From positions 192,001-256,000 of the forward strand of contig CAXXXF010000003.1 of NCBI GenBank assembly GCA_963667175.2: a stretch of 64,000 bases of DNA. The letters run 5' to 3'. A program made the translations under genes and the position numbers. The stretch comes from Candidatus Latescibacterota bacterium. GTDB lineage: Bacteria > Latescibacterota > UBA2968 > GCA-2709665. The notes below the pieces were generated by a model. That model saw nothing but the letters and a program-made list of their open reading frames with translations. It searched no databases and was not told the DNA's origin. Positions 275 through 36,472 of the stretch are shown here, in pieces; position 1 is the stretch's first letter; every line of letters begins with the position of its first letter.

Positions 275-412
275 CGAGGGCATCCCTGCCCTCGGTGGCC
301 GATGCGCTGTGCCTTGGCGCCGTCATTTCCGATGTTTCGGACGAATGGGAATGTAAGCCCTTGATGAGGATATTTGCGGGTTCCGCGATATTCGAGGGCA
401 GGGATGCCCTCG
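275..412. repeat. REP doublet (REPIN-like) unit 1
   Basis: CGAGGGCATCCCTGCCCTCG (275-294) and its exact reverse complement (393-412), upstream of RAYT. Confidence 0.9.
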
Positions 413-504
413 GTCCGGTTTCTGGTAGATTATGAACTGATGTAGGGCGGGATACCCTCGGTTCGGATACTATTTAATCACGTACTAATGTAGGGAAGGA
501 CACC

Positions 505-1110
505 TTGGGCTTCAGTGGACCGACATCCCGCGTAAAGCCGTCAAGTAGACTTCACCGCACCCGTCTTCCGCACTTTGAAGCCGGGGAAGTTCCCCAACAC
601 GTTTGTTTTCGACTGGCGGACAGCCTGCCGCAATATCTGCTCCGACAACGGGAGCGTGACCTGGATAGACTTCAGGAAGGGGAACACCAGAATCGTCGAA
701 GGATCGAAGAGGCGTTGGATCGGGGCCATGGCGCCTGCTGGCTGCGCCGGCCTGACATCGCAGCACTGGTGCGTGATGCCATACGGTACTTCGATGGCCA
801 CCTGTATCATCTGCATGCGTGGGTGGTCATGCCCAATCATGTCCACGTGTTGGCGACACCGATTGGCAACCACTCGCTGTCTGGCATCGTACACTCCTGG
901 AAGTCGTACACTGCTAGCCTGGCTAATAAGATGCTGAAACGCAAGGGAAAGTTCTGGCATGAGGACTACTTTGACCGGTTTGTTCGCGACGAAGATCACT
1001 TCGGAGAAATTGTCAAATATATTCACTGGAACCCGGTGAAGGCAGGGTTGTGCACGGACCCTGAAGATTGGGAATGGAGCAATTGTTGCAACCGGCGTTC
1101 ACGGGATTGA
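505..1110 (+). CDS. REP-associated tyrosine transposase (RAYT, HUH Y1 family)
   Basis: RLPH...FRLADSLP, HUH motif WVVMPNHVHVL, FWHEDYFDR and catalytic-Tyr region YIHWNPVKAGL. Flanked by REP palindromes. Confidence 0.92.
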   Translation: MGFSGPTSRVKPSSRLHRTRLPHFEAGEVPQHVCFRLADSLPQYLLRQRERDLDRLQEGEHQNRRRIEEALDRGHGACWLRRPDIAALVRDAIRYFDGHLYHLHAWVVMPNHVHVLATPIGNHSLSGIVHSWKSYTASLANKMLKRKGKFWHEDYFDRFVRDEDHFGEIVKYIHWNPVKAGLCTDPEDWEWSNCCNRRSRD

Positions 1111-1164
1111 TGGCCTCCTTCCCTCGACGCGTAGCGCCAGGCGCGATCCGTTGGGTGCGAGGAT

Positions 1165-2030
1165 GCCTTTCCCGGGAGCGAGGGCATCCCTGCCCTCGCC
1201 GGCGGATGTACGGGGCCTTGGTGCCGTCATTTCCGAAATGGAACTGGAAGCGAAGGAAGCGATAGGCCCTTGATGTAGATGTTGGCTGTTGATGCGAAGT
1301 TCGAGGGCAGGGATGCCCTCGGTCCGGGTGCTGGAGGATCATGAACTGATGCAGGGCGGGAGGCTCGGTGTTAGGGATGGCACAATCGGTGTGTGGCGGA
1401 TTTTTACGAACTGAATCAATTCCAGCGGATCTGTTCCTGGGTTCAAGGTTTCCCTGAGAGCGAGGGCATCCCTGCCCTCGCCGGCCGATACGTGAGGCCT
1501 TGGCGCCGTCATTTCCGATGTTTCGGATGAATGGGGATGATAAGCCCTTGATGAGGAAATTTGCGGGTGCTGCGATATTCGAGGGCAGGGATGCCCTCGG
1601 TCCGGACACTGGTGGATCATGTACTGAAGTAGGGCAGATCTTCAGTTTTGCAGGTATTGATCGGTCACTTGTCCTGACCGGGTAACACGCAGGGCGTGCA
1701 AGGTGGCGGGAGGAAAAAACCGCGCACCTTCGGGAGGTCAATTCGAAGTAGCGATTCACGCCAAACAGGTGTTATTGGCGCAATAGCAACGAATGCCTTT
1801 CCCGGGATCGAGGGCATCCCTGCCCTCGGTGGCCGATGCGCTGTGCCTTGGCGCCGTCATTTCCGAAATGGAATTGGAAGCAAGGGAAGCAGAAGGTCCC
1901 TGATGTGGAAATTGGCGGTTGATGCGAAGTTCGAGGGCAGGGATGCCCTCGGTCCGGGTGCTGGAGGATCATGAACTGATGCAGGGCGGGAGGCTCGGTG
2001 TTAGGGATGGCACAATCGGTGTGGTGGCGA
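1165..2030. repeat. Array of three REP doublets (units 2-4) with conserved internal and trailing sequence
   Basis: Inverted 20-mer pairs at 1179-1198/1302-1321, 1461-1480/1580-1599 and 1809-1828/1932-1951. Units share the internal ccttggYgccgtcatttccga and the tail ggtccgg...ggatcatg. Confidence 0.92.
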
Positions 2031-2062
2031 GTTCGCATTCGTAACGTCGATATCGATACCAA

Positions 2063-5000
2063 ATGCAACTGGAAGACCTCAAACCCGGCACAACCGTCCG
2101 CGGCATCGTTCCCGACGGCGTTGTAACCGTCGTCAACGTGCAATGGCACGGCTCCGGAGCGCTTACGCTGATCTATCGCCCGGCCTCCGGGCGGGTCGCC
2201 GAAGAGATTCTCTACCGGCACGACGAGGCGCGCCTCGAGATCGTCGAGCATGGCCGCCCGTGGAGTTTCGACGGCGACGGCGCGCTCTTTCGCCTTGTGT
2301 CCGAAGCCTACCGCATCCGCCTGGCCCACTTATTCGATCCCGTCCTCGCCGTACATACTTCCCTCGTCGAACCTCTCCCGCACCAGATCACGGCCGTGTA
2401 CGAGGCCATGTTACCGCACCATCCGCTGCGGTTCCTGCTGGCCGACGATCCCGGCGCCGGAAAAACGATCATGGCCGGGCTCTTGATGAAGGAACTCGTT
2501 GCCCGCGGCGATCTCCGACGATGCCTCGTGGTGTGTCCCGGTAGCCTTGCCGAGCAGTGGCAGGACGAACTCTACCGCCGTTTCCATCTCCCGTTCGAGA
2601 TTCTGACGAACGACAAGCTTGACGCCGCCCGGACTGGAAATTGGTTCCTCGAAAACGACCTCGCCATCGCCCGGCTGGACAAACTCGCCCGCAATGACGA
2701 CCTGCAGGCCAAGCTGGGCGCCCCGGACTGTCGCTACGACATGGTGGTCTGCGACGAAGCGCACAAGATGTCGGCGACCTTCTTCGGCGGCGAAGTGAGA
2801 TACACCAGGCGCTACCGGCTCGGTCAACTTCTGTCCAATCTCACCCGCCATTTTCTGCTGATGACGGCCACGCCGCACAACGGGAAGGAGGCGGACTTTC
2901 AACTCTTCCTCGCCCTGTTGGACGGCGATCGCTTCGAGGGACGGTTCCGTGACGGCGTTCACCAGGTGGACGTTTCCGATCTGATGCGCCGAATGGTGAA
3001 GGAGAATCTGTTGAAGTTCGACGGACGGCCGTTGTTCCCGGAGCGCATCGCGTATTCGGTGCCGTACAGGCTAACTGACGCCGAAGCGCGGCTGTACAGA
3101 GAGGTGACCGAATACGTCCGCGAAGAGTTCAATCGCGCGGAGGCGTTGCAAAACGATACACGCGCGGGTACCGTCGGCTTTGCGCTCACCATCCTGCAGC
3201 GGCGCCTGGCGTCTTCGCCCGAAGCGATTCACCAATCGCTGAGGCGGCGCCGTGAACGGCTCGAAGGCCGGCTTCGAGAACTGAGCCTGCTGCAACGCGG
3301 CGCCAGGCAACAGGAAGCAATCTCCCAGGCCGGTCCGTTGTTGGACGCCGAGGACGTGGAGGACCTGGACGACGCCCCGTACGAAGAGGTCGAGGCTGCC
3401 GAGGCGGCAGTGCTGGACGAGGCGACGGCGGCAGGTACCATCGCGGAACTGGAAGCCGAGATCGCTTCGCTCAAGCGGCTCGAAAAGATCGCGGGTGAAA
3501 TCCTTCGCAGCGGAGAGGATACGAAGTGGCGTGAACTCTCGAATCTGCTCGGAGAGATCTTCACGAAGGCCGGACTGGGAGCGTCGGGTGGCGAGAAAGT
3601 CGAACCCTACGGCAGCGGCGCCATCCCGCCTCCTGTTCCGTCGCCGAGCCAGAAACTCGTACTCTTCACCGAGCACCGGGATTCGCTGAACTACCTCCAG
3701 CGGCGCATTGCCACGCTGCTTGGCCGTCCGTCCGGCGTTGTCACCATCCACGGGAGCATGGGGCGGGAGGATCGCCGCAAGGCCCAGGAGGCCTTCCTGC
3801 ACGATCCGCTGGTTCGGGTTCTGTTGGCTACCGACGCCGCCGGTGAGGGCATCAACCTCCAGCGCGCCCACCTGATGGTGAACTACGACCTTCCGTGGAA
3901 CCCGAACCGCATCGAACAGCGATTCGGACGGATCCACCGCATCGGGCAGACGGAGGTCTGTCATCTCTGGAACCTGGTGGCGGAAGAAACCCGGGAAGGC
4001 GACGTGTACCGCAAACTGCTGGACAAGCTCGAGCAGGCCCGGAGCGCCCTTGGCGGACAGGTCTTCGACGTGCTCGGCAGGCTTCAGTTCGACGGCCGTC
4101 CCCTTCGCGACCTGCTGATCGAAGCGATCCGCTACGGCGAACAACCCGAAGTGCGCGCCCGGCTCTCGGAGGCTGTAGATGAAGCCGTAGACCGGCCGCA
4201 TCTTCAGGAACTGATCGATGAACACGCCCTCGCGCACGATGCGATGGACTCGACCCGGGTTGCGCGCGTGCGGGAGGAGATGGAACGCGCCGAGGCCCGG
4301 CGACTGCAACCGCACTACATCGAGGCGTTTTTCCTCGAAGCGTTCAGGCGACTGGGAGGCACGGCGCGACGGCGTGAGACGGGCCGGTATCAGATCAACC
4401 ACGTCCCGGCGCCGGTGCGCAACCGCGACAGGCAGATCGGCGTGGGCGAACCGGTTCTCGCGCGCTACGAACGCATCGCTTTCGACAAGAAGTACCTCAC
4501 GCCACAGGGGGAGACGCCCGCGGCCTTCGTGTGCCCCGGACACCCGTTACTCGACGCAATCCTCGACCTGACGCTGGAGCGCCACAGGGACCTGCTTCAT
4601 CGAGGCGCCGTACTCGTGGATGAGCGGGACCCGGGCCTGGAAACGCGCGTGATCTTCTCTCTGGAACATGCCATCAAGGATGGGAGTGTCCTGCCGAGCG
4701 GTGAAGGTCGCGTCATTTCCCGCCGGACGCTATACGTCGAGATCGATTCATCGGGCGCAAAGTATCGTCTGGACCACGCGCCTTACCTGGACTACCGGCC
4801 ACTGGGAGATCACGAACCCAATGAAGCGGACGTCCTCGCTCGTCCCGAATGCGAATGGATCACGCGCGAACTGGAGCAGCAGGCGCGCGAGGAAGCCATC
4901 GCCAACATCGTGCCGGAACACCTCGGTGAAGTACGCGACCGTCGAATTGATCTGGTTGCGAAGACCCGCGCCGCGGTAAAGGAGCGCCTGACCAGGGAAA

Positions 5001-5635
5001 TGGCGTACTGGGACCACCGGGCCGAGGAGCTCAAGCTGCAGGAGGAAGCGGGAAAGGCCGGAGCAAAGCTAAACTCGCGTGAGGCCCAGCGGCGGGCCGA
5101 CGACCTTCAGGAGCGTCTTGAGCAGCGGATGTCCCAACTGGACCGGGAAGAGAAAATTTCAGCGCTCCCTCCCGCCGTGATCGGCGGCCTTGTCGTGGTG
5201 CCGATGGGACTTCTGGCAGAGATGAGCGGCGCCTCGCCCCCGCGGCGACCCGTGGACACCCAGAAGTCGGCGGCGAAAGCGCGCGCCATCATCATGGAAG
5301 TCGAGCGCGGCCTTGGATTCGAGCCGGTCGACCGGGAGACCGAACACCTCGGATATGACATCGAGAGCCGCGTTCCGGGAACGGGGAAACTCCGGTTCAT
5401 CGAAGTGAAGGGCCGCCAATCCGGTGAAGATACGATCACGGTGACGACAAACGAGATCGTCACCGCGTTGAACAAACCGGACGACTTCGTCCTCGCCATT
5501 GTCGAGTTTCTGGATAGCGGTGAACATCGCACGCACTACCTGCGCCGGCCCTTCCAGCGGGAACCGGACTTTTCGGTGACCAGCGTGAACTACAAGCTGA
5601 AAGACTTAATTGAACGGGCCGGAAAGCCGGTCTAA
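2063..5635 (+). CDS. SNF2-family helicase with C-terminal DUF3883 (NOV-C) PD-(D/E)XK nuclease domain
   Basis: LADDPGAGKT, CDEAH, MTATPH, QRFGRIHRIGQ, and C-terminal GYDIES...FIEVKG. Confidence 0.9.
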   Translation: MQLEDLKPGTTVRGIVPDGVVTVVNVQWHGSGALTLIYRPASGRVAEEILYRHDEARLEIVEHGRPWSFDGDGALFRLVSEAYRIRLAHLFDPVLAVHTSLVEPLPHQITAVYEAMLPHHPLRFLLADDPGAGKTIMAGLLMKELVARGDLRRCLVVCPGSLAEQWQDELYRRFHLPFEILTNDKLDAARTGNWFLENDLAIARLDKLARNDDLQAKLGAPDCRYDMVVCDEAHKMSATFFGGEVRYTRRYRLGQLLSNLTRHFLLMTATPHNGKEADFQLFLALLDGDRFEGRFRDGVHQVDVSDLMRRMVKENLLKFDGRPLFPERIAYSVPYRLTDAEARLYREVTEYVREEFNRAEALQNDTRAGTVGFALTILQRRLASSPEAIHQSLRRRRERLEGRLRELSLLQRGARQQEAISQAGPLLDAEDVEDLDDAPYEEVEAAEAAVLDEATAAGTIAELEAEIASLKRLEKIAGEILRSGEDTKWRELSNLLGEIFTKAGLGASGGEKVEPYGSGAIPPPVPSPSQKLVLFTEHRDSLNYLQRRIATLLGRPSGVVTIHGSMGREDRRKAQEAFLHDPLVRVLLATDAAGEGINLQRAHLMVNYDLPWNPNRIEQRFGRIHRIGQTEVCHLWNLVAEETREGDVYRKLLDKLEQARSALGGQVFDVLGRLQFDGRPLRDLLIEAIRYGEQPEVRARLSEAVDEAVDRPHLQELIDEHALAHDAMDSTRVARVREEMERAEARRLQPHYIEAFFLEAFRRLGGTARRRETGRYQINHVPAPVRNRDRQIGVGEPVLARYERIAFDKKYLTPQGETPAAFVCPGHPLLDAILDLTLERHRDLLHRGAVLVDERDPGLETRVIFSLEHAIKDGSVLPSGEGRVISRRTLYVEIDSSGAKYRLDHAPYLDYRPLGDHEPNEADVLARPECEWITRELEQQAREEAIANIVPEHLGEVRDRRIDLVAKTRAAVKERLTREMAYWDHRAEELKLQEEAGKAGAKLNSREAQRRADDLQERLEQRMSQLDREEKISALPPAVIGGLVVVPMGLLAEMSGASPPRRPVDTQKSAAKARAIIMEVERGLGFEPVDRETEHLGYDIESRVPGTGKLRFIEVKGRQSGEDTITVTTNEIVTALNKPDDFVLAIVEFLDSGEHRTHYLRRPFQREPDFSVTSVNYKLKDLIERAGKPV

Positions 5636-5657
5636 AGTACAACTGAGGGAGGGAATT

Positions 5658-7364
5658 ATGGCGAAAGCGAATATCCTCAACACTCGTACGATCAATTACA
5701 TGGAGCTTATTGGCAACGGCAAGTTATACAGAGTGCCCCCGTATCAACGCGACTACTCCTGGTCGCAAGAACAATGGGAGGACTTATGGAACGACATTCT
5801 AGAACTGAAGTCGTCCCCCGATGAGCGCCATTATATGGGTGCACTCGTAGTTGAAGGGAAGAGTGATCGCGAATTCCTGATCATCGATGGACAGCAGCGC
5901 CTTCCTACATTGAGTCTGTTTGCGCTCGCAGTTATCGACAGATTACAGGCGATGGCCGACCAGGGGATCGAGCCTGAGGACAACGGGGAACGGGCTCGGG
6001 AACTACGGAATCGATTTATAGGAGAGAAGGATCCGGCTTCGCTTACCGAAAGCACGCGATTGTACTTAAACGAGACCGACGATCCATTCTATCAAGACTA
6101 TCTGGTTCAACTAAGAAAACCGATAAACCCAAGGGGTTTGCCCAGGTCGAATCAACTCCTTTGGCAGTGTTTCCTTTATTTTAAGCGAAGTCTCGAATCG
6201 GCTCAGGATCTACAGGTGGATGGCAGAATCACAGCTAGCCTCCTCTCAGAGACCATCGCACGCCAATTCCTTTTTATTCTGATCACAGTAGACGACGAGT
6301 TAAACGCTTACACGGTTTTTGAGACTCTTAACGCGCGGGGTTTGGAATTAACCACTACGGACCTCCTGAAGAACTACCTGTTCTCGCGAGTGTCAGTGTC
6401 TGCAGATCTGACGGCATTACAGCGTCGCTGGCAAAGGCTAGTCGCCACCGTCGAACAGCCGCGTTTTCCTGAGTTTCTTCGATATCATCTTCTCTGCGAG
6501 CACCCGAGAGTTCGAAGCGAACGGTTATTTAAGCTGGTTCGAGAGCGAACCAAAACGTCTCAGGATGTATTCGATCTCCTTGACAACCTGGAAGGCCGTG
6601 CGGAACTATTCGCGGCTGTCCTGGATCCGAACCACAGCTACTGGATTGAATTACACAAAGCAAAGCCGTACATCCATGAGCTAAACCTCTTTCGAGTACG
6701 TCAAGCAATGCCTCTGCTGTTCGCAGCTTGGGAAAATATGAATGGCGAATTTGTCCGCATTCTGAAACTCGTCAGCAATATTTCGTTCCGTTACACTGTT
6801 GTGAGCCGCCGGAACACGAATGAACTAGAACCTGTCTACCACAACGCTGCCAAGGCGGTAATCGAGGGTAAGGCGACGGGACCTGCCGAAGTTTTCAATC
6901 ATCTAAAGGCCATCTACGTGGATGACATAAGGATGGACCAGGATTTCGCATTTCTTACCGTAAACACTCGAGGGCCCAGGAAGAAATTGGCGAAATATAT
7001 CCTGGCACGACTGGAAGAGGACGCAGCTAAGCGCCCCTGCGATTCGAATACGGACCCCGGAACGATCGAGCATATCCTTCCGGAGAATCCATTGGAATCC
7101 TGGGATGAGACATTTGCTTCGGATCAGTGGGATGCCGCAATCTACCGACTCGGGAATCTAACGCTTCTCGAGCCGTCAGCCAATCGGGATTTAGGTAATT
7201 CCGCCTATGAGCAAAAACGTACGGCGTATACAATAAGCAAGTATGAAATCACCAGGACCATTCCCGAGTTGGCGCCGGAGCAATGGACACCTGAACTGTT
7301 GGACGAAAGGCAACGCAGGTTCTCCAGACGAGCCGTACATTTGTGGAGATCGGATTTCGCGTGA
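5658..7364 (+). CDS. DUF262-DUF1524 fused protein (GmrSD-like type IV restriction nuclease)
   Basis: VPPYQRDYSW, IIDGQQRL, FETLNARG, TIEHILPE...LGNLTLLE...N (HNH). ATG at 5658 follows GGGAGG. Confidence 0.88.
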   Translation: MAKANILNTRTINYMELIGNGKLYRVPPYQRDYSWSQEQWEDLWNDILELKSSPDERHYMGALVVEGKSDREFLIIDGQQRLPTLSLFALAVIDRLQAMADQGIEPEDNGERARELRNRFIGEKDPASLTESTRLYLNETDDPFYQDYLVQLRKPINPRGLPRSNQLLWQCFLYFKRSLESAQDLQVDGRITASLLSETIARQFLFILITVDDELNAYTVFETLNARGLELTTTDLLKNYLFSRVSVSADLTALQRRWQRLVATVEQPRFPEFLRYHLLCEHPRVRSERLFKLVRERTKTSQDVFDLLDNLEGRAELFAAVLDPNHSYWIELHKAKPYIHELNLFRVRQAMPLLFAAWENMNGEFVRILKLVSNISFRYTVVSRRNTNELEPVYHNAAKAVIEGKATGPAEVFNHLKAIYVDDIRMDQDFAFLTVNTRGPRKKLAKYILARLEEDAAKRPCDSNTDPGTIEHILPENPLESWDETFASDQWDAAIYRLGNLTLLEPSANRDLGNSAYEQKRTAYTISKYEITRTIPELAPEQWTPELLDERQRRFSRRAVHLWRSDFA

Positions 7365-9651: not shown

Positions 9652-9664
9652 AGGAGAACGAGTG

Positions 9665-10747: not shown

Positions 10748-10947
10748 TGGTCGATTAAAACGTCACGTGGCATCGGGCGGGGGATTTGATCTCCTGCTTA
10801 GCAGAAATCGTAAAATGCCAGCCTCCGAAGGTTCATTCGAGATGCTTGGCGATACTAATAGTGACAGAATCGTCTACCCTGCCGCATATTTTGGCAAACC
10901 TCCGAGACGACTGAATCTTGAAATCGAACATTGAGGAGGTATCCGGT

Positions 10948-13113: not shown

Positions 13114-13119
13114 ACCTGA

Positions 13120-26192: not shown

Positions 26193-26225
26193 GGTTTGAC
26201 GCACATCGCTCCTACAACGTCCTTC

Positions 26226-26279
26226 CTGGGAGCGCGGGCGCCTGCCTGTGCGTTGCACGCAGGCAGGTCCCGCCCGCAT
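26226..26279. repeat. GGAG-type REP hairpin split by a 27-bp palindrome
   Basis: ctgggagcgcgggcg[cctgcctgtgcgttgcacgcaggcagg]tcccgcccgcat. Confidence 0.6.
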
Positions 26280-26424
26280 GTGCTGTATCTATTCGGCCAC
26301 GTAAGCGCACAATTGAACGTCGTACTACCAATGCCCACTTTTGGTGATTCAACGTATAAACGAAATCTGCGGCAATCGATGTCGCTATCCAAACAGAGTC
26401 ACACTTAGAACAGGTACTGACGCC

Positions 26425-27561
26425 ATGGACCAGGAACGCCCTGAAGACCGACTTCATCTTCCGGATCTGTCGATAACCGGATTTCGGGGAATCGCGTCAC
26501 TTTCCATTAAGCGCTTAGGCCGCGTGACGCTGCTCGCGGGAAGGAATAGTGTCGGCAAAACAACCGTCCTTGATGCCGTCCGGGTCTACGCGGCGCGGGG
26601 TCGCCCTTCCGTTCTGTCCGACGTGTTGAAGAGCCACGAAGAAGTGGCTGCCGTTACCTACCACAGTGACAGCGAGAAAATTGGCCCTCATCTGGAAGCG
26701 CTCTTCCACGGACGGGACGCTTCTGAGGAAACATTCTTCTCGATCGGCCCTGATAACGGACGGGATCAAGTTAGCGTTGAAGCGATTCCTCCGGATAAAG
26801 CCACTCGCCCTCATCATCCGTGTCCTGCCCCTTTTTTTGTGGCGCCAGTAAGAATGCTTAAAATTGTCTGTCGAGACAAAGAGGAGATCGTCCCCTGGTT
26901 TTTCTCTCCCTATGCGTTGAGTACCAAGATGGCCAAGAGTCGCCGTGTATATCAATATATCGTGGCAACAACCACAGATTACGACCTTCCAGCCACGATA
27001 GACTGTCGGTCGATGGGTCCGGCCCTTTTGAGCAAGGACCAAGTCGTGGCATTTTGGGATGACGTCGCGCTGACCGACGATGAGGAATGGGTCGTCAATT
27101 CCCTGCAGCCTGTTCTCGGGGACCAGGTTCAGCGCATTGGGACGATCGGAGATAACAGTAACGGTCGACGGGTGATCGTCAGAATTCGGGAGCAAGCCTT
27201 TCCGGTCCCTCTGGATAGTTTTGGCGACGGGGCCCTGCGCCTGTTCGGCACAGCCTTGGCGTTGATCAATAGCCGGGACGGCTTCCTGCTCATCGATGAA
27301 GTGGAAAACGGGATTCACCATACCGTGCAGCGCGATTATTGGCGAATGGTACTTGAGACCGCGCACATAAACAACGTGCAGGTTCTGGCAACAACGCACA
27401 GCTACGACTGTGTCCGCGGTTTTGCGCAGGCGGCAACGGAATGCGAGGGAATCGACGGGGCGCTTGTGCGCATTGAACGTAGAGATAAGGAAATGTGGGC
27501 AGTTGAGTATTCGGAAAAGGATCTCAGGATCGCTGCTGAACAGCGTATCGAAGTGAGGTAG
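26425..27561 (+). CDS. ABC-type ATPase (AAA_21-like)
   Basis: LAGRNSVGKTT, FGDG, LIDEVENGIH, ATTHS, IEVR*. Confidence 0.85.
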   Translation: MDQERPEDRLHLPDLSITGFRGIASLSIKRLGRVTLLAGRNSVGKTTVLDAVRVYAARGRPSVLSDVLKSHEEVAAVTYHSDSEKIGPHLEALFHGRDASEETFFSIGPDNGRDQVSVEAIPPDKATRPHHPCPAPFFVAPVRMLKIVCRDKEEIVPWFFSPYALSTKMAKSRRVYQYIVATTTDYDLPATIDCRSMGPALLSKDQVVAFWDDVALTDDEEWVVNSLQPVLGDQVQRIGTIGDNSNGRRVIVRIREQAFPVPLDSFGDGALRLFGTALALINSRDGFLLIDEVENGIHHTVQRDYWRMVLETAHINNVQVLATTHSYDCVRGFAQAATECEGIDGALVRIERRDKEMWAVEYSEKDLRIAAEQRIEVR

Positions 27562-27565
27562 GTTG

Positions 27566-28180
27566 ATGGAAAATGGTGACCGTGTCCTCCTCGTTGAAGG
27601 GCAAGACGACAAGCATGTTGTTCGACATCTGTGCCGGCAAAGCGAGTCAATGCCGCCATTTCACATTGAAGTAAAGGGTAACGACAGAAAGCTTCTTGAT
27701 TCCCTTAAACAGGAAATCAGAGTTTCCGGTCGCAGTGCCGTCGGCATCCTCATTGACGCAAACGACGATATGAATGGTCGCTGGAGTGCGGTGGAATATC
27801 GGCTTCGAGGCGAGGGTATTGAATTACCTCGTGTCCCTGTACGAACCGGTACCTTGATTGAGGGAATCATCCGCACGCCCCGCATTGGTATCTGGTTGAT
27901 GCCAGACAATCAGTCGGCCGGCGAACTCGAAGACTTTGTCTCGACGATGGTTCCTGAAAGCGATTCGGTATGGCCGCGTTCTGAGCGTTACATAAGGGAC
28001 ATTCCGAAAAAGGATAGAAAATTCAGCGACCATAAGGTACAGAGAGCCATGATCCACGCCTGGTTAGCGACTAGAAAGGAACCCAGGAAGATTGGCACAG
28101 CCATTTATGCGGGAGATTTGCGCGTTGATGGAAGACTCAGCATGGAATTTGCAGATTGGCTTCGCGAGCTTTTTAAATGA
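27566..28180 (+). CDS. DUF3226-like TOPRIM-fold protein
   Basis: LLVEGQDD, ILIDAND, IWLMPDNQSAGELEDF. Confidence 0.75.
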   Translation: MENGDRVLLVEGQDDKHVVRHLCRQSESMPPFHIEVKGNDRKLLDSLKQEIRVSGRSAVGILIDANDDMNGRWSAVEYRLRGEGIELPRVPVRTGTLIEGIIRTPRIGIWLMPDNQSAGELEDFVSTMVPESDSVWPRSERYIRDIPKKDRKFSDHKVQRAMIHAWLATRKEPRKIGTAIYAGDLRVDGRLSMEFADWLRELFK

Positions 28181-29001
28181 ACGGATGGATCATGCATCCT
28201 GCTGAACAAATCGCAAAGGACACCTGGGGACGATTGAAACTGGCACGCGAACTCCGGACCCGGCTGGGAGAGGTAACCCTTACTGATCTGCTCGTTTTGG
28301 ATTTCGTGCGTTTCATGAATGGTCGCGCCAGGTTATTTCAAAGTACCAACAAGCAGGAATCGATACGAGGGACCGATCTCGAGATTCGGATTCACGCTGG
28401 ATGCAATCGAGCCGTTGCGTTTGCACTGCAAGCCAAGAAGCTGTATCCAGATGAAAGGTATCGTGAATTAAAGACCACGGTGAAGTCATCGAACTCCCTT
28501 CAATTGGAAATTCTTGAGGATTATGCTGAATCAGTACGCGCTGTCCCACTCTATCTACTGTACAACTACGTGTGCTGGGATGATTTACAACCATATTGGC
28601 ATTGTCGTGAGCGCCTCACGGAAGACATTGAACAACTGGGTTGTACCGTGGTACCAAGTCGGATTATTCGGCATGCGATTTGTAAACGCGGGCGCAGTAA
28701 CTTCGAATGGATCCACAGACTTAACCATGCATTGCCGTGGCGTTGTCTTTTCAACTGCCCTCACCAATGCACGCAGCGCTATGACGGCGAGTATTTGGAA
28801 CCCGTTGACGGTGGGTGGCCGGACTGGCTTTGGTCTCGAAAGAACACGACGTTTTATGACGAAGACGTGGACAGATTGCGTGAGGAGATTTCAAACCGAG
28901 AGAAATCGAGGCGGAAATTGGAACAGTCCGATATTCCACACGGATTTGGACATACCGACGAGATTGGCGAACTGCCGGGTTACCTCATCTTGGTCAAGTA
29001 G
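28177..29001 (+). CDS. DUF6615-like protein, copy 2
   Basis: Near-identical to 22006-22827 except near the C-terminus. Confidence 0.65.
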   Translation: MNGWIMHPAEQIAKDTWGRLKLARELRTRLGEVTLTDLLVLDFVRFMNGRARLFQSTNKQESIRGTDLEIRIHAGCNRAVAFALQAKKLYPDERYRELKTTVKSSNSLQLEILEDYAESVRAVPLYLLYNYVCWDDLQPYWHCRERLTEDIEQLGCTVVPSRIIRHAICKRGRSNFEWIHRLNHALPWRCLFNCPHQCTQRYDGEYLEPVDGGWPDWLWSRKNTTFYDEDVDRLREEISNREKSRRKLEQSDIPHGFGHTDEIGELPGYLILVK

Positions 29002-29057
29002 AAGACCGGATAAACAGATCGAATGTAGCACGACGCTAATCCCGCGGTGCCTCGGCA

Positions 29058-29192
29058 ACCGTTCCCAACGAACTCCTCGCGGACGGGTGTCTGCTGTGCA
29101 GCGAGGATAAGCCGCACCACTGCCATAGGCGGCTCGTGGCGGAGTATCTGAAACAGCATTGGGGCGACGTCGAAATTGTCCACCTCGGATAG
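29058..29192 (+). pseudogene. 3' remnant of DUF488
   Basis: TVPNELLADGCLLCSEDKPHHCHRRLVAEYLKQHWGDVEIVHLG* matches the end of 25409-25846. Confidence 0.85.
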
Positions 29193-29202
29193 GAAACATC
29201 GC

Positions 29203-29541
29203 GTGAACATACCTGCCTCGGAAACGTTTATATCGACCATGGTAGACCGAATTGTAGAAGGCTTCCAACCTTCTCGGCTTCTCCTGTTCGGTTCCCATGC
29301 GCGGGGCACGGCAACCGAGTGGAGTGACGTCGACTTGCTCGTCATTCTGCCCAACGTGTCCGACAAGCGGGATACGGCTATCGAGATCCGCCGCGCCCTG
29401 GGAGATCTCCCAGTTTGCAAGGACATAGTAATAGCCACTCCCGAGGAAGTCATTCGTCGCGGTCATCTTGTTGGTACCGTGTTGCGTTCAGCACTCCGCG
29501 AAGGGAAGGTTCTCTATGAACGACCCTGCGCGCCATCGTGA
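29203..29541 (+). CDS. MNT nucleotidyltransferase, copy 2
   Basis: Near-identical to 25857-26192. Confidence 0.85.
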   Translation: MNIPASETFISTMVDRIVEGFQPSRLLLFGSHARGTATEWSDVDLLVILPNVSDKRDTAIEIRRALGDLPVCKDIVIATPEEVIRRGHLVGTVLRSALREGKVLYERPCAPS

Positions 29542-29900
29542 CGCGCGTCGCTTGTTTCATTTCGAGACGGGAGATCTCGTTTTCGGACAACGCTTCTTGT
29601 CGGCCGACGGCGCTTGACTTCGGCACACCCGATCCGTCGTCTAGCAAATTGACAGATCGCCAATATCCGTCAGCGGTACTACGACGCGAACTTCAAGACC
29701 CAGGACATCCCGCATTTGATGGCGAGCTCGGTATCTATTTCGAATGAACTGTGTCAGAGAAGCGATTGCATTGTGACAAGCGGTGACACAAATTTCGGCG
29801 CAATGCCCGATACAAGGAAATTCAACGAGCTTGCTTCGCGCGACGCGTTGCTTTTCTGAACGATAAATTGCACGCAACTACCGTGAAGTTCTGTCAGGCG
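29516..29900 (+). pseudogene. Possible decayed HEPN gene
   Basis: Overlapping ATG in the usual HEPN position (MNDPARHRDARRLFHFETGDL...) followed by stops. Right end is approximate. Confidence 0.3.
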
Positions 29901-29968
29901 TGACCTCAGACGTCGACTTCACCAGGAGTCCTTGCCGCCTTGTCTTTGACAGATAGGGGAATTGAACC

Positions 29969-31144
29969 ATGCAAATTGAGCAGATTGAGATCAAAAACTA
30001 CCGTCCCTTCCGCCACGCGGTCCTCGGAGCTCTGCCGCGCATGGTCGTAGTTGTCGGCGCCAACGGCTCGGGCAAATCAACGCTCTATGATGTTTTCAGC
30101 TTTCTAAAGGATGCGCTGACTCAAAATGTCGCCACGGCGGTCGCCAGGCGAGGCGGATTCCAGGAGCTTGTCAGTCGTGGAGAAAACGGCCCGATCGGTA
30201 TTACGATTAAATTTCGAGAGAAAGGCGGGCGGCTGGCCACATATGTCCTTCAAGTGGCCGAAGATAGTGGACGTGTCGTCGTCCACCGCGAGATTCTACG
30301 CTACCGGCGGGGGCAGTATGGAAAGCCCTGGCATTTCGTTGATTTTTCGCGCGGTACGGGAACTGCGATCACAAATGAGTCCGTGTACGGCCAAAAAGGC
30401 GTCGTCGAAGAGCGGGAAGAGTATGAGCTCGACGATCCAAGCATCCTGGCGATAAAAGGTTTGGGCCAATTCCGTGAATTCCGTGTTGTATCGGAGTATC
30501 GTAGCCTGGTTGAGAACTGGCACGTGTCGAATTTCCACATTGCCGACGCCCGGCCGAGTGTCGACGCTGGCTACGCCGAACATCTGTCCAGCCGAGGCGA
30601 CAATGTCGCCCAGGTCGCCCACTATCTTTACGAGAATCACCGCGACTCGTTCGACCGAATTCTAAGGGCGATGAGTCACCGCGTTCCGGGTGTTAGTAGA
30701 GTAGAAGCCAAACCCACGGAGGACGGACGTCTGGTTTTACGCTTTCAGGATGGAAGCTTCAAGGATCCATTCATCGCCCGGTACGTCTCCGACGGCACCA
30801 TAAAGATGTTTGCATATCTCGTATTGCTCTATGACCCCAGACCTCATCCCTTGTTGGCAGTCGAAGAACCTGAAAACCAACTGTACCCCGAGCTGTTGGT
30901 TGAGCTAGCTGAGGAGTTTCGCGACTACGCCCAGCGAGGAGGTCAAGTGTTTATTTCAACACACTCACCTGATTTCCTGAATGGTGTGGAACTCGAAGAG
31001 ATCTTCTATTTGGTCAAGAAAAACGGCTTCACGACTGTGCGCCGAGCATCCGAGAGCGAGTTGCTACGCAACCTCGTCGACGAAGGGGATTTACCAGGTT
31101 CTCTCTGGAAGCAAAGGCTGTTTGAGGGAGTAGGACTACAATGA
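29969..31144 (+). CDS. ABC-type ATPase (AAA_21-like)
   Basis: VGANGSGKST, VSDGT, AVEEPENQL, STHSP. Confidence 0.88.
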   Translation: MQIEQIEIKNYRPFRHAVLGALPRMVVVVGANGSGKSTLYDVFSFLKDALTQNVATAVARRGGFQELVSRGENGPIGITIKFREKGGRLATYVLQVAEDSGRVVVHREILRYRRGQYGKPWHFVDFSRGTGTAITNESVYGQKGVVEEREEYELDDPSILAIKGLGQFREFRVVSEYRSLVENWHVSNFHIADARPSVDAGYAEHLSSRGDNVAQVAHYLYENHRDSFDRILRAMSHRVPGVSRVEAKPTEDGRLVLRFQDGSFKDPFIARYVSDGTIKMFAYLVLLYDPRPHPLLAVEEPENQLYPELLVELAEEFRDYAQRGGQVFISTHSPDFLNGVELEEIFYLVKKNGFTTVRRASESELLRNLVDEGDLPGSLWKQRLFEGVGLQ

Positions 31145-31731
31145 GGCACATTGTTTTCCTTCTGGAGGAGTTCTCAATGGGCGGCTTTCTGGATGTCTTG
31201 TTGCCGAGAATTTTTCCGGATCTGTCCTTTCAGTGCGTGCCCCACGAGGGTAAACAAGACCTTGAGAAGAGTATCCCTCGAAAATTAAGGGCGTGGCGCG
31301 AGCCGGGTGTACATTTCTGCGTGATTCGGGATAACGATAGTGGCGATTGCCGCGCACTGAAGGAAAGGCTTATCGCTCAATGCAAGTCGGGCGGCCGGGA
31401 TGACACCTTGATCCGCATCGCTTGCCAGGAGTTGGAGGCCTGGTATCTGGGCGAGCCGGATGCTTTGGCGGAGGCGTTCGCTAACGAAAAGCTGCGGGGC
31501 ATCGGAAATAAAGCGCGATATCGCAATCCGGACGCCGTCGTCAGACCATCTGCCGAAGTCCGAAAGCTCGTACCTGAATTCCAAAAGGTTTCGGGCGCTC
31601 GCCGCATGGCTTGCCATTTGACCTGCGACAGGAATAGGTCGGCTAGTTTCCGCACTTTTCTAATGGGAATTGAGGACCTATGGCGAAATCCCCTGATCGG
31701 GGATGTGCGTAGTCCATCAACCGTAGGATGA
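31141..31731 (+). CDS. DUF4276-like TOPRIM-fold protein
   Basis: VFLLEE, HEGKQDL, RDNDSGDC, ELEAWYLG, NRSASF. Confidence 0.75.
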   Translation: MRHIVFLLEEFSMGGFLDVLLPRIFPDLSFQCVPHEGKQDLEKSIPRKLRAWREPGVHFCVIRDNDSGDCRALKERLIAQCKSGGRDDTLIRIACQELEAWYLGEPDALAEAFANEKLRGIGNKARYRNPDAVVRPSAEVRKLVPEFQKVSGARRMACHLTCDRNRSASFRTFLMGIEDLWRNPLIGDVRSPSTVG

Positions 31732-31743: not shown

Positions 31744-34700
31744 ATGGCAGTAACCAACCGTGAACGCGTCGAAAAGGCGCTCGATCTATTGAAGGCGGGA
31801 TTGGGTCCATTCGTCGATCGAGAAGTCAAGAGTGCATTTAAAGCAAAGCGATTGGACGAATACGGCTTCCACCACTATCAGGATGACCCGAAACTCAAAG
31901 GCAAGCCCGTTACCGGATGGGACGCGGCCGCTTTGTTGAAGTTGATGTGGACCACGTGGAACGACGTGTTCAGGTATACGCTCGGGCATATCGAACGTAG
32001 TCTCGTCTCCGAACTTCGTGATTGGCGCAATAAATGGGCGCACCAGGAGCACTTTTCGAGCGATGATACAGACCGGGCCCTCGACTCCGCGGAGCGACTG
32101 CTTACGGCGGTTTCGGCATCCCAGGCGGGCCAGGTCAATCGAATGAAAGTGGAGCTTCGCCGTCTGGTAATTGACGAACAGGTCCGGGGGGAACAGCGCA
32201 AGGCGGGCGCGCTTATCGAGTCCCCGGGCGCCAGTGCATTGAAACCCTGGCGCGAGGTGGCAATGCCGCACAACGACGTCGCCACGGGCGGGTACCAGCA
32301 GGCGGAGTTCGCAGCGGATTTGTGGCAGGTACACCTCGGAGAAGGGTCGGACGAGTATCGCGACCCGCAGGAGTTCTTCCGCCGCACGTATCTCACTGAA
32401 AGCCTGAGACGTCTGCTGGAAGGCGCGGTGAGACGTTTGGCAGGTACGGGAGGCGACCCGGTGGTGCAGTTGCAGACCAATTTCGGCGGCGGCAAAACGC
32501 ACTCGATGTTGGCGCTCTACCATCTGTTTTCCGGAATGGCGCCAGGAAGGCTCGAGGGCATGGACGAGGTGCTGGCGGGCGCGGCGGTCGAAACGCCCCC
32601 GTCCGTACGGCGCGTGGTGCTGGTTGGAAACCGAATCTCACCCGGGAATCCGACGGAAAAATCGGACGGCACGGTGGTGGGCACGTTGTGGGGCGAACTC
32701 GCGTACCAGCTTGGCGGTCGGGATGCGTTCGAGCGGGTCCGCGCGGATGACGAGAAGGCCACAAATCCCGGCGATACGCTGCGGGAACTGTTCAACGATT
32801 ACGGACCGTGCGTCGTGCTCATCGATGAGTGGGTGTCGTACGCGCGGCAACTGCACGATGAAGGCGACCTGCCCGGCGGCAGTTTCGAGACGCAGTTCAC
32901 GTTCGCGCAGGCCCTCACCGAATCGGTGAAAGTCACGGGCAACTGCCTGCTGGTGATATCGCTACCGGCCTCGGACACGTCGGATTCGGGTTCGCCGCAT
33001 ACGGAGGCTGACGATGCGGAGGTGGGCGGTATTCGGGGCCGAAGCGCCCTCGAACGCTTGCGAAATGTACTCGGACGGGTGGATTCGCCCTGGCGTCCGG
33101 CGAGCGCCGAGGAAAGCTTTGAAATCGTACGGCGCAGGCTGTTCGAGCCGCTCGCGGGGACGGACGCATTTAAGCAGCGCGATGTGACCGCCCGCGCTTT
33201 CGCGGATCTCTATCGCGTACAGCAGGGAAATTTTCCGGCTGAGTGCCGCGCCATGGATTATCAGAAGCGCATGATGGCCGCGTACCCCATCCATCCGGAG
33301 ATATTCGACAGGCTTTACACGGACTGGTCCGCGCTCGCCAGGTTCCAGCGGACGCGCGGCGTTCTGCGACTGATGGCCGCGGTCATCCACAGTCTTTGGG
33401 AGCGTGGCGACCGCAATCCACTCATTCTGCCGTCCACCATACCCATTGACGATCAGCGGGTTCAGAATGAACTGACGCGGTATCTGCCCGAGAACTGGAC
33501 GCCCGTTATCGAGAAAGACGTTGACGGTCCGGGCGCATTGCCGCTCAGGATCGACGCCGAAGTACCGAACCTTGGCAAACTCTCCGCGACGAGACGCGTG
33601 GCGCGTACCGTCTATATCGGATCGGCGCCGACCCGCGCGGCGGCGCAACGGGGTATCGACGACGCGCGGGTTAAACTGGGGTGCGCCATGCCGGGGGAGA
33701 CGCCAGCGGTCTTTACGGACGCGCTTCGCAGGCTAGCGACGGCGGCAACCTATCTGTACCAGGACGGGCCGCGCGTGTGGTACGATACGCAGCCGACGGT
33801 CACCAAACTGGCCGAAGACCGCGCCGAGCAGTTGAGGACCCATCCCGACGAGATGGCGAGAGAACTGGAAAAACGACTCGAATCGGACTTGCGCACGGCC
33901 GGAGATTTCGAGCGAATCCATTCACTTCCCCGTTCGGGGGCGGACGTACCGGACGATCTGGACGCACGGCTCGTGGTGCTTTCAGCGGAGCAGCCCTACT
34001 CGAGAGAGCCGGACAACGCGGCGGAAGCCGCCGCAAAAGAGGTCCTGGAAATGCGCGGCAACACGCCGCGTCTTTACAGGAATACATTGGTCTTCCTCGC
34101 AGTGGACAAGGTGCGATGGCAGGACCTGGATGAGGCCCTGCGCAAGTATCTGGCGTGGAAGTCGATTGTCGAAGACAGGGTCGAACTCAACCTTGATCCG
34201 CATCAGGCCCGCCAGGCCGAAACTCAAAGGAATGCGGCTGACGACACGGTGACCGCGCGCCTGCCAGAGGCGTATCAGTGGCTGCTCGTGCCCGAGCAGT
34301 CCAACCCACAGGCGGCGATGTCATGGAATGCAATCCGTCTCACGGCCTCCGGCGGCCTCGCCGAACGGGCTTCCAGGCGGCTGCGAAACGACGAGACGAT
34401 GATTTCCTCACTCGGCGCGACAATACTGCAAAAGCACCTCGACGACGTGCCGCTCTGGCGCGGCGAACACGTGGAGGTGCGTCAACTGATTCAGGATTTC
34501 GGGCAATTTCTCTACCTTCCCCGCCTTGCCGGGCCGGACGTTCTCACGCGCGCAATTCAGGACGGCGTGGGATTGATATCCTGGAAATCCGATAGCTTCG
34601 CCTATGCCGAGAGTTACGACGAATCCGAAAGCAGGTATCGCGGCCTGCGAGCGCCATCGACCGTGAGCGTTACGCCCGAGAGCAACGCACTCCTGGTGAA

Positions 34701-35067
34701 GCCGATTGTCGCTGGCGAACAGTTGGACGCGGAGAGACAAAAGCAAGAAGGATCGGAGACGGCGGGCGGTGGCAGCGAAGAAGACGGTAGGGAAGATCAG
34801 CCACATGTTGCGGACAAGCCACCCGAACCGAAGGCCACGCGGTACCATGGCGCGGTGACGCTGAATCACCAGCGTGTGGGTCGCGACGCCAGTCAGATTG
34901 CCGACGAGGTGATCGCGCATCTATCGGGGATCGTGGGCGCGGACGTGACGGTGACGCTGGAGATTCACGCGGAGATACCCGATGGCGCCCCGGAAAACGT
35001 CGTGCGGACGGTTACCGAGAACAGCCATACTCTAAAGTTCGAGAGCCACGGGTTCGAGGAGTCGTAA
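31744..35067 (+). CDS. DUF499 AAA+ ATPase with N-terminal Swt1-like HEPN domain
   Basis: RNKWAH (Rx4H), EFAADL, LQTNFGGGKTH, LIDEW, YPIHPE, FQRTRGVLRL. Confidence 0.9.
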   Translation: MAVTNRERVEKALDLLKAGLGPFVDREVKSAFKAKRLDEYGFHHYQDDPKLKGKPVTGWDAAALLKLMWTTWNDVFRYTLGHIERSLVSELRDWRNKWAHQEHFSSDDTDRALDSAERLLTAVSASQAGQVNRMKVELRRLVIDEQVRGEQRKAGALIESPGASALKPWREVAMPHNDVATGGYQQAEFAADLWQVHLGEGSDEYRDPQEFFRRTYLTESLRRLLEGAVRRLAGTGGDPVVQLQTNFGGGKTHSMLALYHLFSGMAPGRLEGMDEVLAGAAVETPPSVRRVVLVGNRISPGNPTEKSDGTVVGTLWGELAYQLGGRDAFERVRADDEKATNPGDTLRELFNDYGPCVVLIDEWVSYARQLHDEGDLPGGSFETQFTFAQALTESVKVTGNCLLVISLPASDTSDSGSPHTEADDAEVGGIRGRSALERLRNVLGRVDSPWRPASAEESFEIVRRRLFEPLAGTDAFKQRDVTARAFADLYRVQQGNFPAECRAMDYQKRMMAAYPIHPEIFDRLYTDWSALARFQRTRGVLRLMAAVIHSLWERGDRNPLILPSTIPIDDQRVQNELTRYLPENWTPVIEKDVDGPGALPLRIDAEVPNLGKLSATRRVARTVYIGSAPTRAAAQRGIDDARVKLGCAMPGETPAVFTDALRRLATAATYLYQDGPRVWYDTQPTVTKLAEDRAEQLRTHPDEMARELEKRLESDLRTAGDFERIHSLPRSGADVPDDLDARLVVLSAEQPYSREPDNAAEAAAKEVLEMRGNTPRLYRNTLVFLAVDKVRWQDLDEALRKYLAWKSIVEDRVELNLDPHQARQAETQRNAADDTVTARLPEAYQWLLVPEQSNPQAAMSWNAIRLTASGGLAERASRRLRNDETMISSLGATILQKHLDDVPLWRGEHVEVRQLIQDFGQFLYLPRLAGPDVLTRAIQDGVGLISWKSDSFAYAESYDESESRYRGLRAPSTVSVTPESNALLVKPIVAGEQLDAERQKQEGSETAGGGSEEDGREDQPHVADKPPEPKATRYHGAVTLNHQRVGRDASQIADEVIAHLSGIVGADVTVTLEIHAEIPDGAPENVVRTVTENSHTLKFESHGFEES

Positions 35068-35201
35068 CGTCGGGCGGGTTGTGTGGGCAATGCAATGATT
35101 GAATTGCTGCCTTGTAGAGTTATATTGAGTGTTGAGAGAGAGACCGAGGGAACCACGTCCCGAAGTAGCGGTCTATTCATATATGATTTGGAGGGCCCAA
35201 T

Positions 35202-35414
35202 ATGCGGACGAGCGAAGTTATATTCGAAGTGACCGAAGCCATTGAAGGCGGCTACGATGCCAGGGCGCTGGGTCATGCAATTTTCACCCAGGGACAAGAT
35301 TGGACCGATTTGAAGTCTATGGTCAAGGACGCGGTACTCTGCCACTTTGATACTGCGGATTTGCCCAAAGTAATCCGGCTGCATCTCGTCAAGGATGAAG
35401 TGATCGCAGTATGA
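35202..35414 (+). CDS. HicB-like (partial RNase H fold) antitoxin
   Basis: EVIFEVTEAIEGGYDARALGHAIFTQG...VKDAVLCHF. Overlaps a HicA-like start. Confidence 0.7.
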   Translation: MRTSEVIFEVTEAIEGGYDARALGHAIFTQGQDWTDLKSMVKDAVLCHFDTADLPKVIRLHLVKDEVIAV

Positions 35415-35770
35415 GACTGCCTCGGGATCTTTCCGGCGACGAATTGGCTGGATTCCCGCATATGCCGAAAGCGGGGCGTCGAGGCCAGCCCCCGACATTT
35501 ACATTGATGATGGGACTCTTGTCGAGTTTGCAATTCGTTAAATCGTATGCCTCTCGTTCAATCGGTCACAAAACGAAGCGGTTGTCAAGCATATATTCTG
35601 TGGAGACCCATTGGTCGAACATGAAGACGAATTTACATGCGCAAGCGGAGCGATTTGACACCTCTGTAAACCGAAACGATTCCTGGAGCGAGCAAGATCA
35701 AAGAGATTTGACGAAAGCCTCCTTACAGCATGCGGTGACACGCTACCCCGAGGATGAGCATCTTGTTTAA
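35411..35770 (+). pseudogene. Chimeric ORF: HicA-like stub (MRLPRDLSGDELA) joined to a putative antitoxin remnant (35621-35770)
   Basis: HicA similarity ends after ~13 aa. The C-terminal acidic DSWSEQDQRDL overlaps the PemK-like gene. Confidence 0.5.
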
Positions 35771-36104
35771 TCCGGGCGACGTGGTAGTGCTTGAATTTCC
35801 TGGTGCGAAGGAGATCAAACGCCGACCGGCGGACCTCGTCTCGTCTTCGGTTTATCATACTTCTCGACCTGATGTGGTCGTCGGCCTGGTTAAAAGCCAA
35901 ACCATGGAACTCGAGCCCGCGGACTATGTATTGCAGGATTGGCCGCAGGCGGGTTTGAGGATTCCGTCTGTTTTTCGCGGTTTTTTCGCGACTCTGCCCA
36001 CTGCTACCCATCATGCGGTTGTCGGCCGTCTGTCGGAACGCGACTGAATCGAAGTATGTGGGCGTGTGAGAATTGCCCCGGAGCCACTGGCTTCCATTGA
36101 GTGA
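35754..36104 (+). pseudogene. PemK/MazF-like toxin with probable premature stop at 36045-36047
   Basis: PGDVVVLEFP...KRRPA..VSS...DWPQAGLRIPS. LSERD* where W is expected, and the frame stays open to 36104. Confidence 0.65.
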
Positions 36105-36219
36105 CGGGCTCACAACGGCCCCACAATGCGGGCGGAGCGCCAGTGGGTATTGCGGCAATCGGAAAGATTGGAGATTGACCCCCTGCCACGATCAGCATGC
36201 CAGGGTCCAGGGCGTTAAT

Positions 36220-36472
36220 TTCCCTGGGAGCGAGGGCATCCCTGCCCTCGCCGGCAGATGCGCGGGGCCTTGGCGCCGTCATTTCCGATATGGAATTGGC
36301 TGCAAAGGAAGCGGTAGGCCCTTGATTTAGACATTGGTGGGTGATGCGAAGTTCGAGGGCAGGGATGCCCTCGGTCCGGAAACTGGTGGATCATGAACTG
36401 ATGTAAGGCAGAATTGGCTCGGTGTTGGGGATGCCCTCGGTCCGGGGATGCCCTTCGGTCCCGGGGATGCCC
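36220..36472. repeat. REP doublet unit 5 plus tandem half-REPs
   Basis: 20-mer pair at 36231-36250/36354-36373 with the same internal and tail sequence as units 2 and 4. Three gggatgccc.. half copies at 36428-36472. Confidence 0.92.

Follow-up and report, generated by a model that had tools for sequence, protein, structure and literature searches.

The window analysed here, 64,000 nt of a Candidatus Latescibacterota genome (contig CAXXXF010000003.1, positions 192,001–256,000, or G000:C3:192001-256000, G000 being the source genome of 5.52 Mb), contains a predicted defence island of the Hma type (hmaABC). Its borders carry doublets of a repetitive extragenic palindromic (REP) sequence and, on the left, a free-standing gene for a REP-associated tyrosine transposase (RAYT, also TnpA_REP). 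From a comparison with 14 congeners (G001–G014), one genome from outside the genus (G015) and one from another genus of the same family (G016), we lean towards the explanation that the border RAYT and the doublets descend from a REP-RAYT-REP unit which once resided in frame within the island's own hmaB, and which the RAYT moved to its place upstream of hmaA. The homologies between these loci are plain: one RAYT lineage occupies two positions in orthologous islands, free copies carry a flank of hmaB, the hma genes are inherited vertically, and deletions are located at or near the repeats. The initial annotation had seen in the REP array a landing pad or boundary for defence cargo. What stands of this proposal is that the pairing of REPs at both borders is not due to chance and that the direct repeats recombine; the mobilisation of 34 kb of cargo by the RAYT does not hold, given the vertical descent of hma and the eroded state of the empty sites.

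A search with the window RAYT returned, from the islands of congeners, reading frames of 1200 aa. These encode HmaB into which another RAYT, more distant (42–46% identical) and bounded by translated REPs, is inserted in frame at residue ~190. The domains DUF1156 and Y1_Tnp occur together in 90 of the best 120 of 652 matches, a manual count obtained with a query that included the HmaB flanks and so favours fusions. Two insertion sites exist, at about residues 190 and 450 (corresponding to ~16850-16895 and ~17610-17645 in the uninterrupted hmaB of the window), and nearly all inserts retain the HUH motif and the Tyr. The hmaB of G016 carries inserts at both sites. Its site-2 RAYT, at residue ~450, is in frame, shares 78% identity with the RAYT of the window and has the same REP on its flanks. 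In a phylogenetic tree of 31 out of 205 RAYT domains, picked around the clade from an earlier tree and aligned over 180 columns, the five free RAYTs of the genus are sister to the site-2 inserts P0002 and P0003 (support 97/93), with three further site-2 inserts (L108, L109, L113) outside. A RAYT domesticated at a fixed site would not be expected to show this distribution, a single lineage being found inside hmaB (G016) and upstream of hmaA (five genomes of the genus).

The direction from hmaB to the free state is indicated by hmaB site-2 codons which remain on the free RAYTs of congeners. Read upstream from the free RAYT of G011 or G013, the frame runs through the REPs into FSDLVSDVMERVK, which matches the HmaB segment FSDLV..MERVK just before site 2. 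When REP and RAYT sequences were masked in the hmaB of G016, the best match of the DNA preceding the free RAYT was the stretch preceding site 2 (0 of 300 shuffles for G013, 0 of 300 for G011 and 2 of 300 for G007). Against the in-frame linker of G016, this DNA could be aligned over 123 nt in G007 and over 85 nt in the window (0 of 200 shuffles each). Furthermore, in G013 the 83 nt ahead of the REP arm after hmaC match this flank of hmaB, in the register set by the left REP of the insert (0/300), and a decayed REP is found at site 2 in three of the seven congeneric hmaB genes tested (G007, G013 and G011b; 0–2 of 500 shuffles, best query). The doublet spacer of the window resembles the pre-RAYT segment of G007 (profile E 0.002) and, through G007 and G013 as intermediates, may go back to the host gene. 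Taken as a whole, these matches suggest an origin of the border REPs within the island.

A free RAYT adjoining hma was seen in 3 of 80 genome loci, all from congeners, and in 0 of 80 metagenome loci; a RAYT in frame in HmaB in 8 and 9 of them, respectively. A general partnership of a RAYT beside hma was considered and rejected, as none was present outside the genus in these 160 loci, many of which are short. In-frame RAYT domains were also observed in other proteins, namely in IleRS, Eco57I-type and N6/N4 methylases, MttB, a MiaB-like protein and IspG (L120, L127, L136, L155, L182; P0048, P0059, P0108).

The RAYT gene of the window is intact. It scores above the curated cut-off of family NF047646, its HUH motif and Tyr were recognised by alignment to 4ER8 (E 1e-5), and dN/dS values of 0.09–0.27 among congeners point to purifying selection. 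Its nearest relatives are records of Candidatus Latescibacterota, and the metagenome runs sharing most sequence words with the window are sponge metagenomes (at most 0.48 of words per run). The gene is flanked by inverted pairs of its cognate REP hairpins. Each arm has the form GAGGGCA-TCCC-TGCCCTC or its inverse, and ten arms constitute five doublets in one shared orientation. As initially annotated, one doublet precedes the RAYT, three follow it and the fifth lies 34 kb away; all were located (Table 1). The four arms that were folded form hairpins with z-scores of -2.5 to -3.6. The doublets behave as REPINs: 26 distinct ones with spacers of 100–106 nt occur among the compared loci, and pairs about 120 nt apart are found across the genomes of G003 and G005. 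RAYT 3' ends with an attached doublet are present at four non-orthologous places in the genus.

The 20-nt REP core has 13 exact copies in the source genome, ten in the window and three at C6:494633-494931, so that a chance copy at 36.2 kb is ruled out. With a shorter-loop variant included there are 30 arms in 15 clusters, and full doublets are restricted to two loci. The 12 doublets that G000 and G009 have at the locus group in a single clade (100/99), separate from 10 sampled dispersed doublets; therefore, unit 5 belongs with the left array. Its position just after the last island gene was confirmed only in part. It starts ~170 nt past the last small open reading frame (ORF; 35754-36047) but 1.15 kb past the end of the hma block (35067). 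Congeners without hma also have an arm at this place. The short-loop REP reaches 71–107 arms in G001, G003, G005 and G008, genomes without a window-type RAYT (best matches ~40% identical or fragments), and only 10–17 arms in five genomes with an intact one.

Both flank genes were found in 14 out of 14 congeners, and hmaA together with hmaC is at the site in 8 of the 15 genomes of the genus (G000, G001, G003, G004, G007, G009, G011 and G013, with the sites of G003 and G004 split over two contigs). The trees of hmaA and hmaC contain the same three clades as the tree of the right flank gene. Nucleotide identities to G000 are 83–85% for hmaA and 82–84% for the right flank gene, the close pair G009 excluded. 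An rpoB tree (G002 half covered; G012–G014 missing) has the same small clades as hma and a backbone without resolution. A comparison with empty sites in related genomes had been suggested. Five of the seven sites without hma hold island remnants, the ends of which lie outside the REPs: fragments of island genes remain in G005, G010 and G012, and in G008 and G014 the last 45 nt of hmaC are joined 17 nt past the left arm. For these five, pre-insertion alleles were therefore rejected. A clean arm junction exists only in G002 and its sister G006, part of the G006 site being hidden by an N run. These two represent one event, which is compatible with either direction, and the deepest branch of the genus carries hma.

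A native 76-aa gene follows hmaC in five island-bearing genomes and persists between the flanks in 7 of 7 empty ones (it is lost in G000); the right edge of the block is therefore placed where hmaC ends, 1.15 kb short of unit 5. In G009 and G013 an arm separates hmaC from this gene; in G001, G003 and G007 there is none between hmaC and the native next gene. G016 holds an island in the gene order of the window (hmaA-o8537-o9316-ImmA-AAA-x155-hmaB-AlbA-DUF488-MNT-hmaC) elsewhere in its genome; the REP of the window family is absent from its borders and RAYTs occur only inside hmaB. It thus represents a relative with the island and without flanking REPs, an observation which had been named beforehand as one that would speak against a landing pad. 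In G015 there is no arm between the two flank genes. Because trees and identities match those of the flanks, empty sites hold remnants and G016 shares the gene order, the island is, judged from these genomes, old, vertically inherited and repeatedly lost. The island ORFs scanned include no integrase, and with trees that follow the flanks and remnants in 5 of 7 empty sites the locus resembles neither a mobile island nor a composite transposon. As a separate observation, G009 has an extra 8-kb cargo (L031:9711-17471; SNF2 helicase, PIN-like and sacsin-domain proteins) after the small native gene, between right-side REP units.

The direct repeats at the borders do recombine, as judged from the following junctions, and may now serve as deletion substrates for the RAYT or, once, for the whole block. 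In one contig of a single metagenome run (X1), positions 1-262 are followed by 1797-1947, the second part free of mismatches, via the 70 letters common to units 1 and 4, and the RAYT has no cover in this run; an assembly path through the repeat could produce the same picture, assembled contigs having been compared at the left border only. G001, G003, G004 and G005 possess a single intact arm and no RAYT ahead of hmaA. G009 has a 372-bp direct repeat, 90% identical, at the array start left of the RAYT and directly after hmaC, and within the G009 genome the 147-nt spacer is confined to these two places. The junction of G002 aligns as the first left arm plus the last right arm of G009, and a 36-bp repeat (97%) surrounds RAYT and hma in G013.

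In the scenario we favour, the REP-RAYT-REP unit would have left hmaB together with ~45–80 nt of that gene and entered the gap upstream of hmaA. For this, the RAYT would have cut single-stranded DNA next to its REP hairpins, and strand transfer would have followed. Units would then have been copied to the right border, in the ancestor of the genus or later, and the resulting direct repeats would have become substrates for loss of the RAYT or, in one case, of the whole block. The REPs would not be the entry site of the 33-kb cargo. The move itself, and the RAYT as its catalyst, we infer from the homologies described above. In vitro, E. coli TnpA_REP cuts single-stranded REP DNA on the 5' or the 3' side of the hairpin and recombines it (PMC8266576), and REPINs are excised asymmetrically, leaving a 5' tail (PMC3116915). 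Such chemistry would fit the junctions, which are located 17–85 nt from arms, and the four places at which a doublet is attached to a RAYT 3' end. As a wider and more tentative idea, RAYTs of the window family might shuttle between a state in frame in a host protein, favouring defence methylases, and a free state, and exit by their own nick-and-join reaction might found a new REPIN family with a decayed host-coding spacer.

Several observations weigh against an exit from hmaB by the RAYT. Besides the small number of columns in the RAYT tree (180), the site-2 scar is absent in four of the seven hmaB genes tested, including that of the window, and the window's doublet spacers do not match hmaB significantly when compared directly (15–120 of 200 shuffles; E 5.5 for a profile of 26 spacers). 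The GT(A/G)G foot of canonical REPs is missing in all ten arms (their 10-nt feet terminate in GGATC, GGAGC, AGAGC or GGACC); a GTAG foot is required by the E. coli enzyme (PMC8266576). The largest REP expansions occur in genomes without a window-type RAYT. Furthermore, the left arrays of G011 and G013 hold an 80–100-nt piece of hmaC and right-border DNA, which would fit an eroded duplicated island as well as a jump. This leads to an alternative that we regard as possible, if somewhat doubtful: the unit would come from hmaB without a RAYT-catalysed jump, the hma block or its part from hmaB to the right border having been doubled or acquired twice in tandem, and one copy eroded by ordinary recombination and palindrome-prone deletion to a REPtron with scraps of hmaB and hmaC. 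The left array of G013 (right-border DNA-hmaB flank, REPs, RAYT, arm, hmaC piece) is indeed collinear with a collapsed island and shows microhomology where right-border DNA joins the hmaB flank; the tandem hmaB copies of G011 and the five internal direct repeats of 118–706 nt in the window also agree with such a history. It accounts less well for several junctions only 17–85 nt from a REP arm, for the four non-orthologous places at which a RAYT 3' end carries a doublet, and for a RAYT that is intact under purifying selection. Two comparisons remained negative: the 147-nt spacer of the window is not significantly similar to hmaC, and right-border DNA of G007 and G008 has no match in hmaB.

That the REP array came first and that the 34-kb cargo integrated there, or was mobilised by the RAYT or by recombination of direct units, is improbable. 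The repeats around RAYT and hma in G009 (372 bp) and G013 (36 bp, 97%) and the clean arm junction in G002, probably also in G006 with its N run, would be expected from it, and REPs at recombination points around O157-antigen clusters provide a precedent, there a speculative one (PMC3158064). It is contradicted by the vertical descent of hma at the site, by eroded islands at five of seven empty sites, by the G016 island at another site without border REPs, by the missing arm in G015 and by island-internal DNA on the border REPs. Only 3 of the 13 REP clusters that G000 has outside the locus have a PADLOC defence match of E<=1e-30 within ~5 kb (148 ORFs, no random control set); with GC content as a proxy for islands, 5 of 13 have a side below 56% GC, vs 25% of random sites. 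Even less probable is a free REPtron that was ancestral beside hmaA and later entered site 2 of hmaB in the G016 lineage. Other free RAYT clades (the L110 and L111 groups) do belong to the same 17-row clade, and a single clade of site-2 inserts is rejected (p-AU 0.00013, for a group named after the tree had been seen), but site-2 hmaB codons in frame with the free RAYT of G011 and G013, and the site-2 scars, would be left unexplained. Finally, it is hardly credible that unit 5 is a REPIN which inserted by chance and has nothing to do with the array. Arms reach 71–107 copies in some congeners, but full doublets exist at only two loci of G000, and in the tree unit 5 falls together with the left array (100/99); chance placement was therefore rejected by core counts and doublet tree.

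The island itself is, by its gene content, a known Hma locus with embedded defence cargo and is predicted to act against phages. The genes hmaA, hmaB and hmaC follow each other in this order on one strand with full-length PADLOC matches (E reported as 0), and defence cassettes, a common though not obligatory trait of Hma systems, lie between them (HEC-06, HEC-01, PDC-S06, PDC-M45, PDC-M38 and helicase-DUF2290). Embedded genes were reported for 62.7% of 1,485 Hma systems, where such cargo is typical (Payne et al., bioRxiv 10.1101/2024.01.29.577857); these loci have also been named DUF499-centred BREX-related systems (PMC12839542). The hmaA gene starts ~33 nt past the tail of unit 4, in agreement with the ~30 bp originally noted. 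Catabolic genes had been placed outside both ends; the left neighbour encodes a PhyH-family dioxygenase, and the right neighbour is an FG-GAP/beta-propeller protein without assigned function. Since the window contains five internal direct repeats of 118–706 nt, including an additional copy of the hmaA 3' end behind the GmrSD gene, cargo exchange was probably anchored on duplicated hma and cargo genes and not on REPs. The hmaB gene diverges much faster than hmaA (79% vs 97% amino-acid identity between G000 and G009) and G011 has two tandem hmaB genes, which suggests exchange of specificity regions.

Table 1. Predicted features of the REP-bordered Hma island and its flanks (positions in the window)
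Feature	Position	Strand	Remarks
PhyH-family dioxygenase, 3' end; conserved left flank	1..170	+	Pfam PF05721; gene start 609 nt left of window; at site in 14/14 congeners and G015
REP doublet unit 1	263..470	+	arms 276-293, 394-411
Pre-RAYT DNA into RAYT start	477..560	+	homologous to in-frame REP linker of RAYT inside G016 hmaB; local alignment score 40, 0/200 shuffles
Free-standing RAYT / TnpA_REP	505..1110	+	NF047646, 100.8 bits (cut-off 80); HUH (HVH) and catalytic Tyr intact
REP doublet unit 2	1168..1369	+	arms 1180, 1303
REP doublet unit 3	1449..1638	+	arms 1462, 1581
147-nt spacer	1646..1792	+	one copy in G000; two in G009 (left array; directly after hmaC)
REP doublet unit 4	1798..2030	+	arms 1810, 1933; first 70 nt common to unit 1, tail nearest unit 2
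hmaA, SNF2 helicase with NOV_C nuclease domain	2063..5635	+	PADLOC HmaA, 1643.8 bits; Pfam
GmrSD-type HEC-06 cargo	5610..7364	+	followed by second copy of hmaA 3' end (8397-8514, 94% identical to 5511-5628)
Embedded cargo: HTH-ImmA/IrrE, helicase and DUF2290, AAA ATPase and partner	9662..16270	+	
hmaB, DUF1156 adenine methyltransferase, no RAYT insert	16282..19194	+	PADLOC HmaB, 1543.5 bits
Embedded cargo: PDC-S06, DUF6615 x2, AlbA, PDC-M45, nucleotidyltransferase x2, PDC-M38, HEC-01	19325..31731	+	
hmaC, HEPN-DUF499 ATPase	31744..35067	+	PADLOC HmaC, 1136.4 bits; 3' end is right edge of hma block (congener comparison)
Small ORFs between hmaC and unit 5	35202..36047	+	toxin-antitoxin-like by inspection; no Pfam/NCBIfam match for two scanned
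REP doublet unit 5	36219..36472	+	arms 36232, 36355, plus partial arms; orthologue of last unit of G009
Conserved right flank gene, FG-GAP/beta-propeller protein, 1118 aa	36635..39991	+	ATG at 36677

Of the four RAYT loci that were examined in the source genome, three touch defence genes. At G000:C7:42700-63600 (L186, L187) a defence island with PsyrA, DRT3, a UvrD helicase and Pycsar ends at two RAYT copies which are unrelated to the one described here. These copies are 96% identical, 3.4 kb apart and associated with a GTAG-type REP, so that a recently duplicated REPtron flanks cargo. At the matching site G003 and G008 have ~1 kb, including a RAYT 3' end with the doublet of the window. A third RAYT with an internal REP (G000:C8:17533-18174, L189) is situated inside a type I restriction-modification locus and is followed by three tandem 450-nt REP-bearing repeats.

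Other repeats were noticed in the window as well. A 290-nt element resembling miniature inverted-repeat transposable elements is found at 13655-13957, inside the island, and at 61617-61919, with ~20 copies in the genome (91–99% identity). Dispersed repeat copies at 7576-7603 and 8921-9090 are related to the ends of an element at 52073-54118. The right flank gene belongs to a tandem family of FG-GAP/beta-propeller proteins of 1100–1200 aa (36635-46712 and 57710-61357), with ~26–33 matches per genome in the genus.

By comparison between genomes, the locus documents a single RAYT lineage in two places within one defence island, and host codons mark the direction of the change. Natural substrates that match each other are available from it, namely a fused and a free enzyme, REP ends and mapped junctions. 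It also illustrates how a parasite of a defence gene can leave behind repeats through which the RAYT or the island is later lost. If the shuttling idea is true, the locus would be a dated record of the birth of a REPIN family, whose new repeats make a defence locus deletable. Hma systems with cargo, REPtrons and REPIN clusters are known. RAYTs have been described as single-copy, vertically inherited and not self-mobile (PMC5581495; bioRxiv 2021.07.10.451892), and two papers report no evidence of RAYT self-mobility and leave the spread of REPs unresolved (PMC8266576; bioRxiv 2021.07.10.451892). REPs alone within genes were already known (PMC3733652), and long fusion proteins were set aside by Quentin et al. 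(bioRxiv 279083). The main text of PMC12839542 mentions neither RAYT, HUH, Y1_Tnp nor transposase, though its supplement may list the fusion. In the literature searched, from which subscription papers and supplements were mostly absent, we found no account of a RAYT in HmaB or of its exit.

In its helicase, DUF1156 methyltransferase and HEPN-DUF499 ATPase, with HEC-01, HEC-06 and PDC cassettes in between, the island agrees with the Hma systems defined in PADLOC (HmaA/B/C). It differs from them by ~20 embedded genes over 33 kb, by the REPtron at its left border and by relatives with a RAYT domain inside HmaB. The O157-antigen clusters of E. coli are similar in having REPs at some indel or junction points around a large variable gene block (PMC3158064, where RAYTs are not considered), whereas the block in the window is vertically inherited and its REPs would come from within. 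With E. coli TnpA_REP (PDB 4ER8) and the REPINs of P. fluorescens (PMC3116915) the locus shares an HUH-Y1 enzyme next to tandem inverted-hairpin doublets, dispersed doublets and vertical inheritance in the genus. Unlike these REPtrons, the REPs of the window have no GT(A/G)G foot, and the RAYT lineage also occurs in frame in host genes and has changed its position within one locus. In contrast to the in-frame REPtrons of DUF1156 methylases, finally, the unit of the window lies outside the gene, and the host codons still attached to it in congeners point to exit and not to entry.

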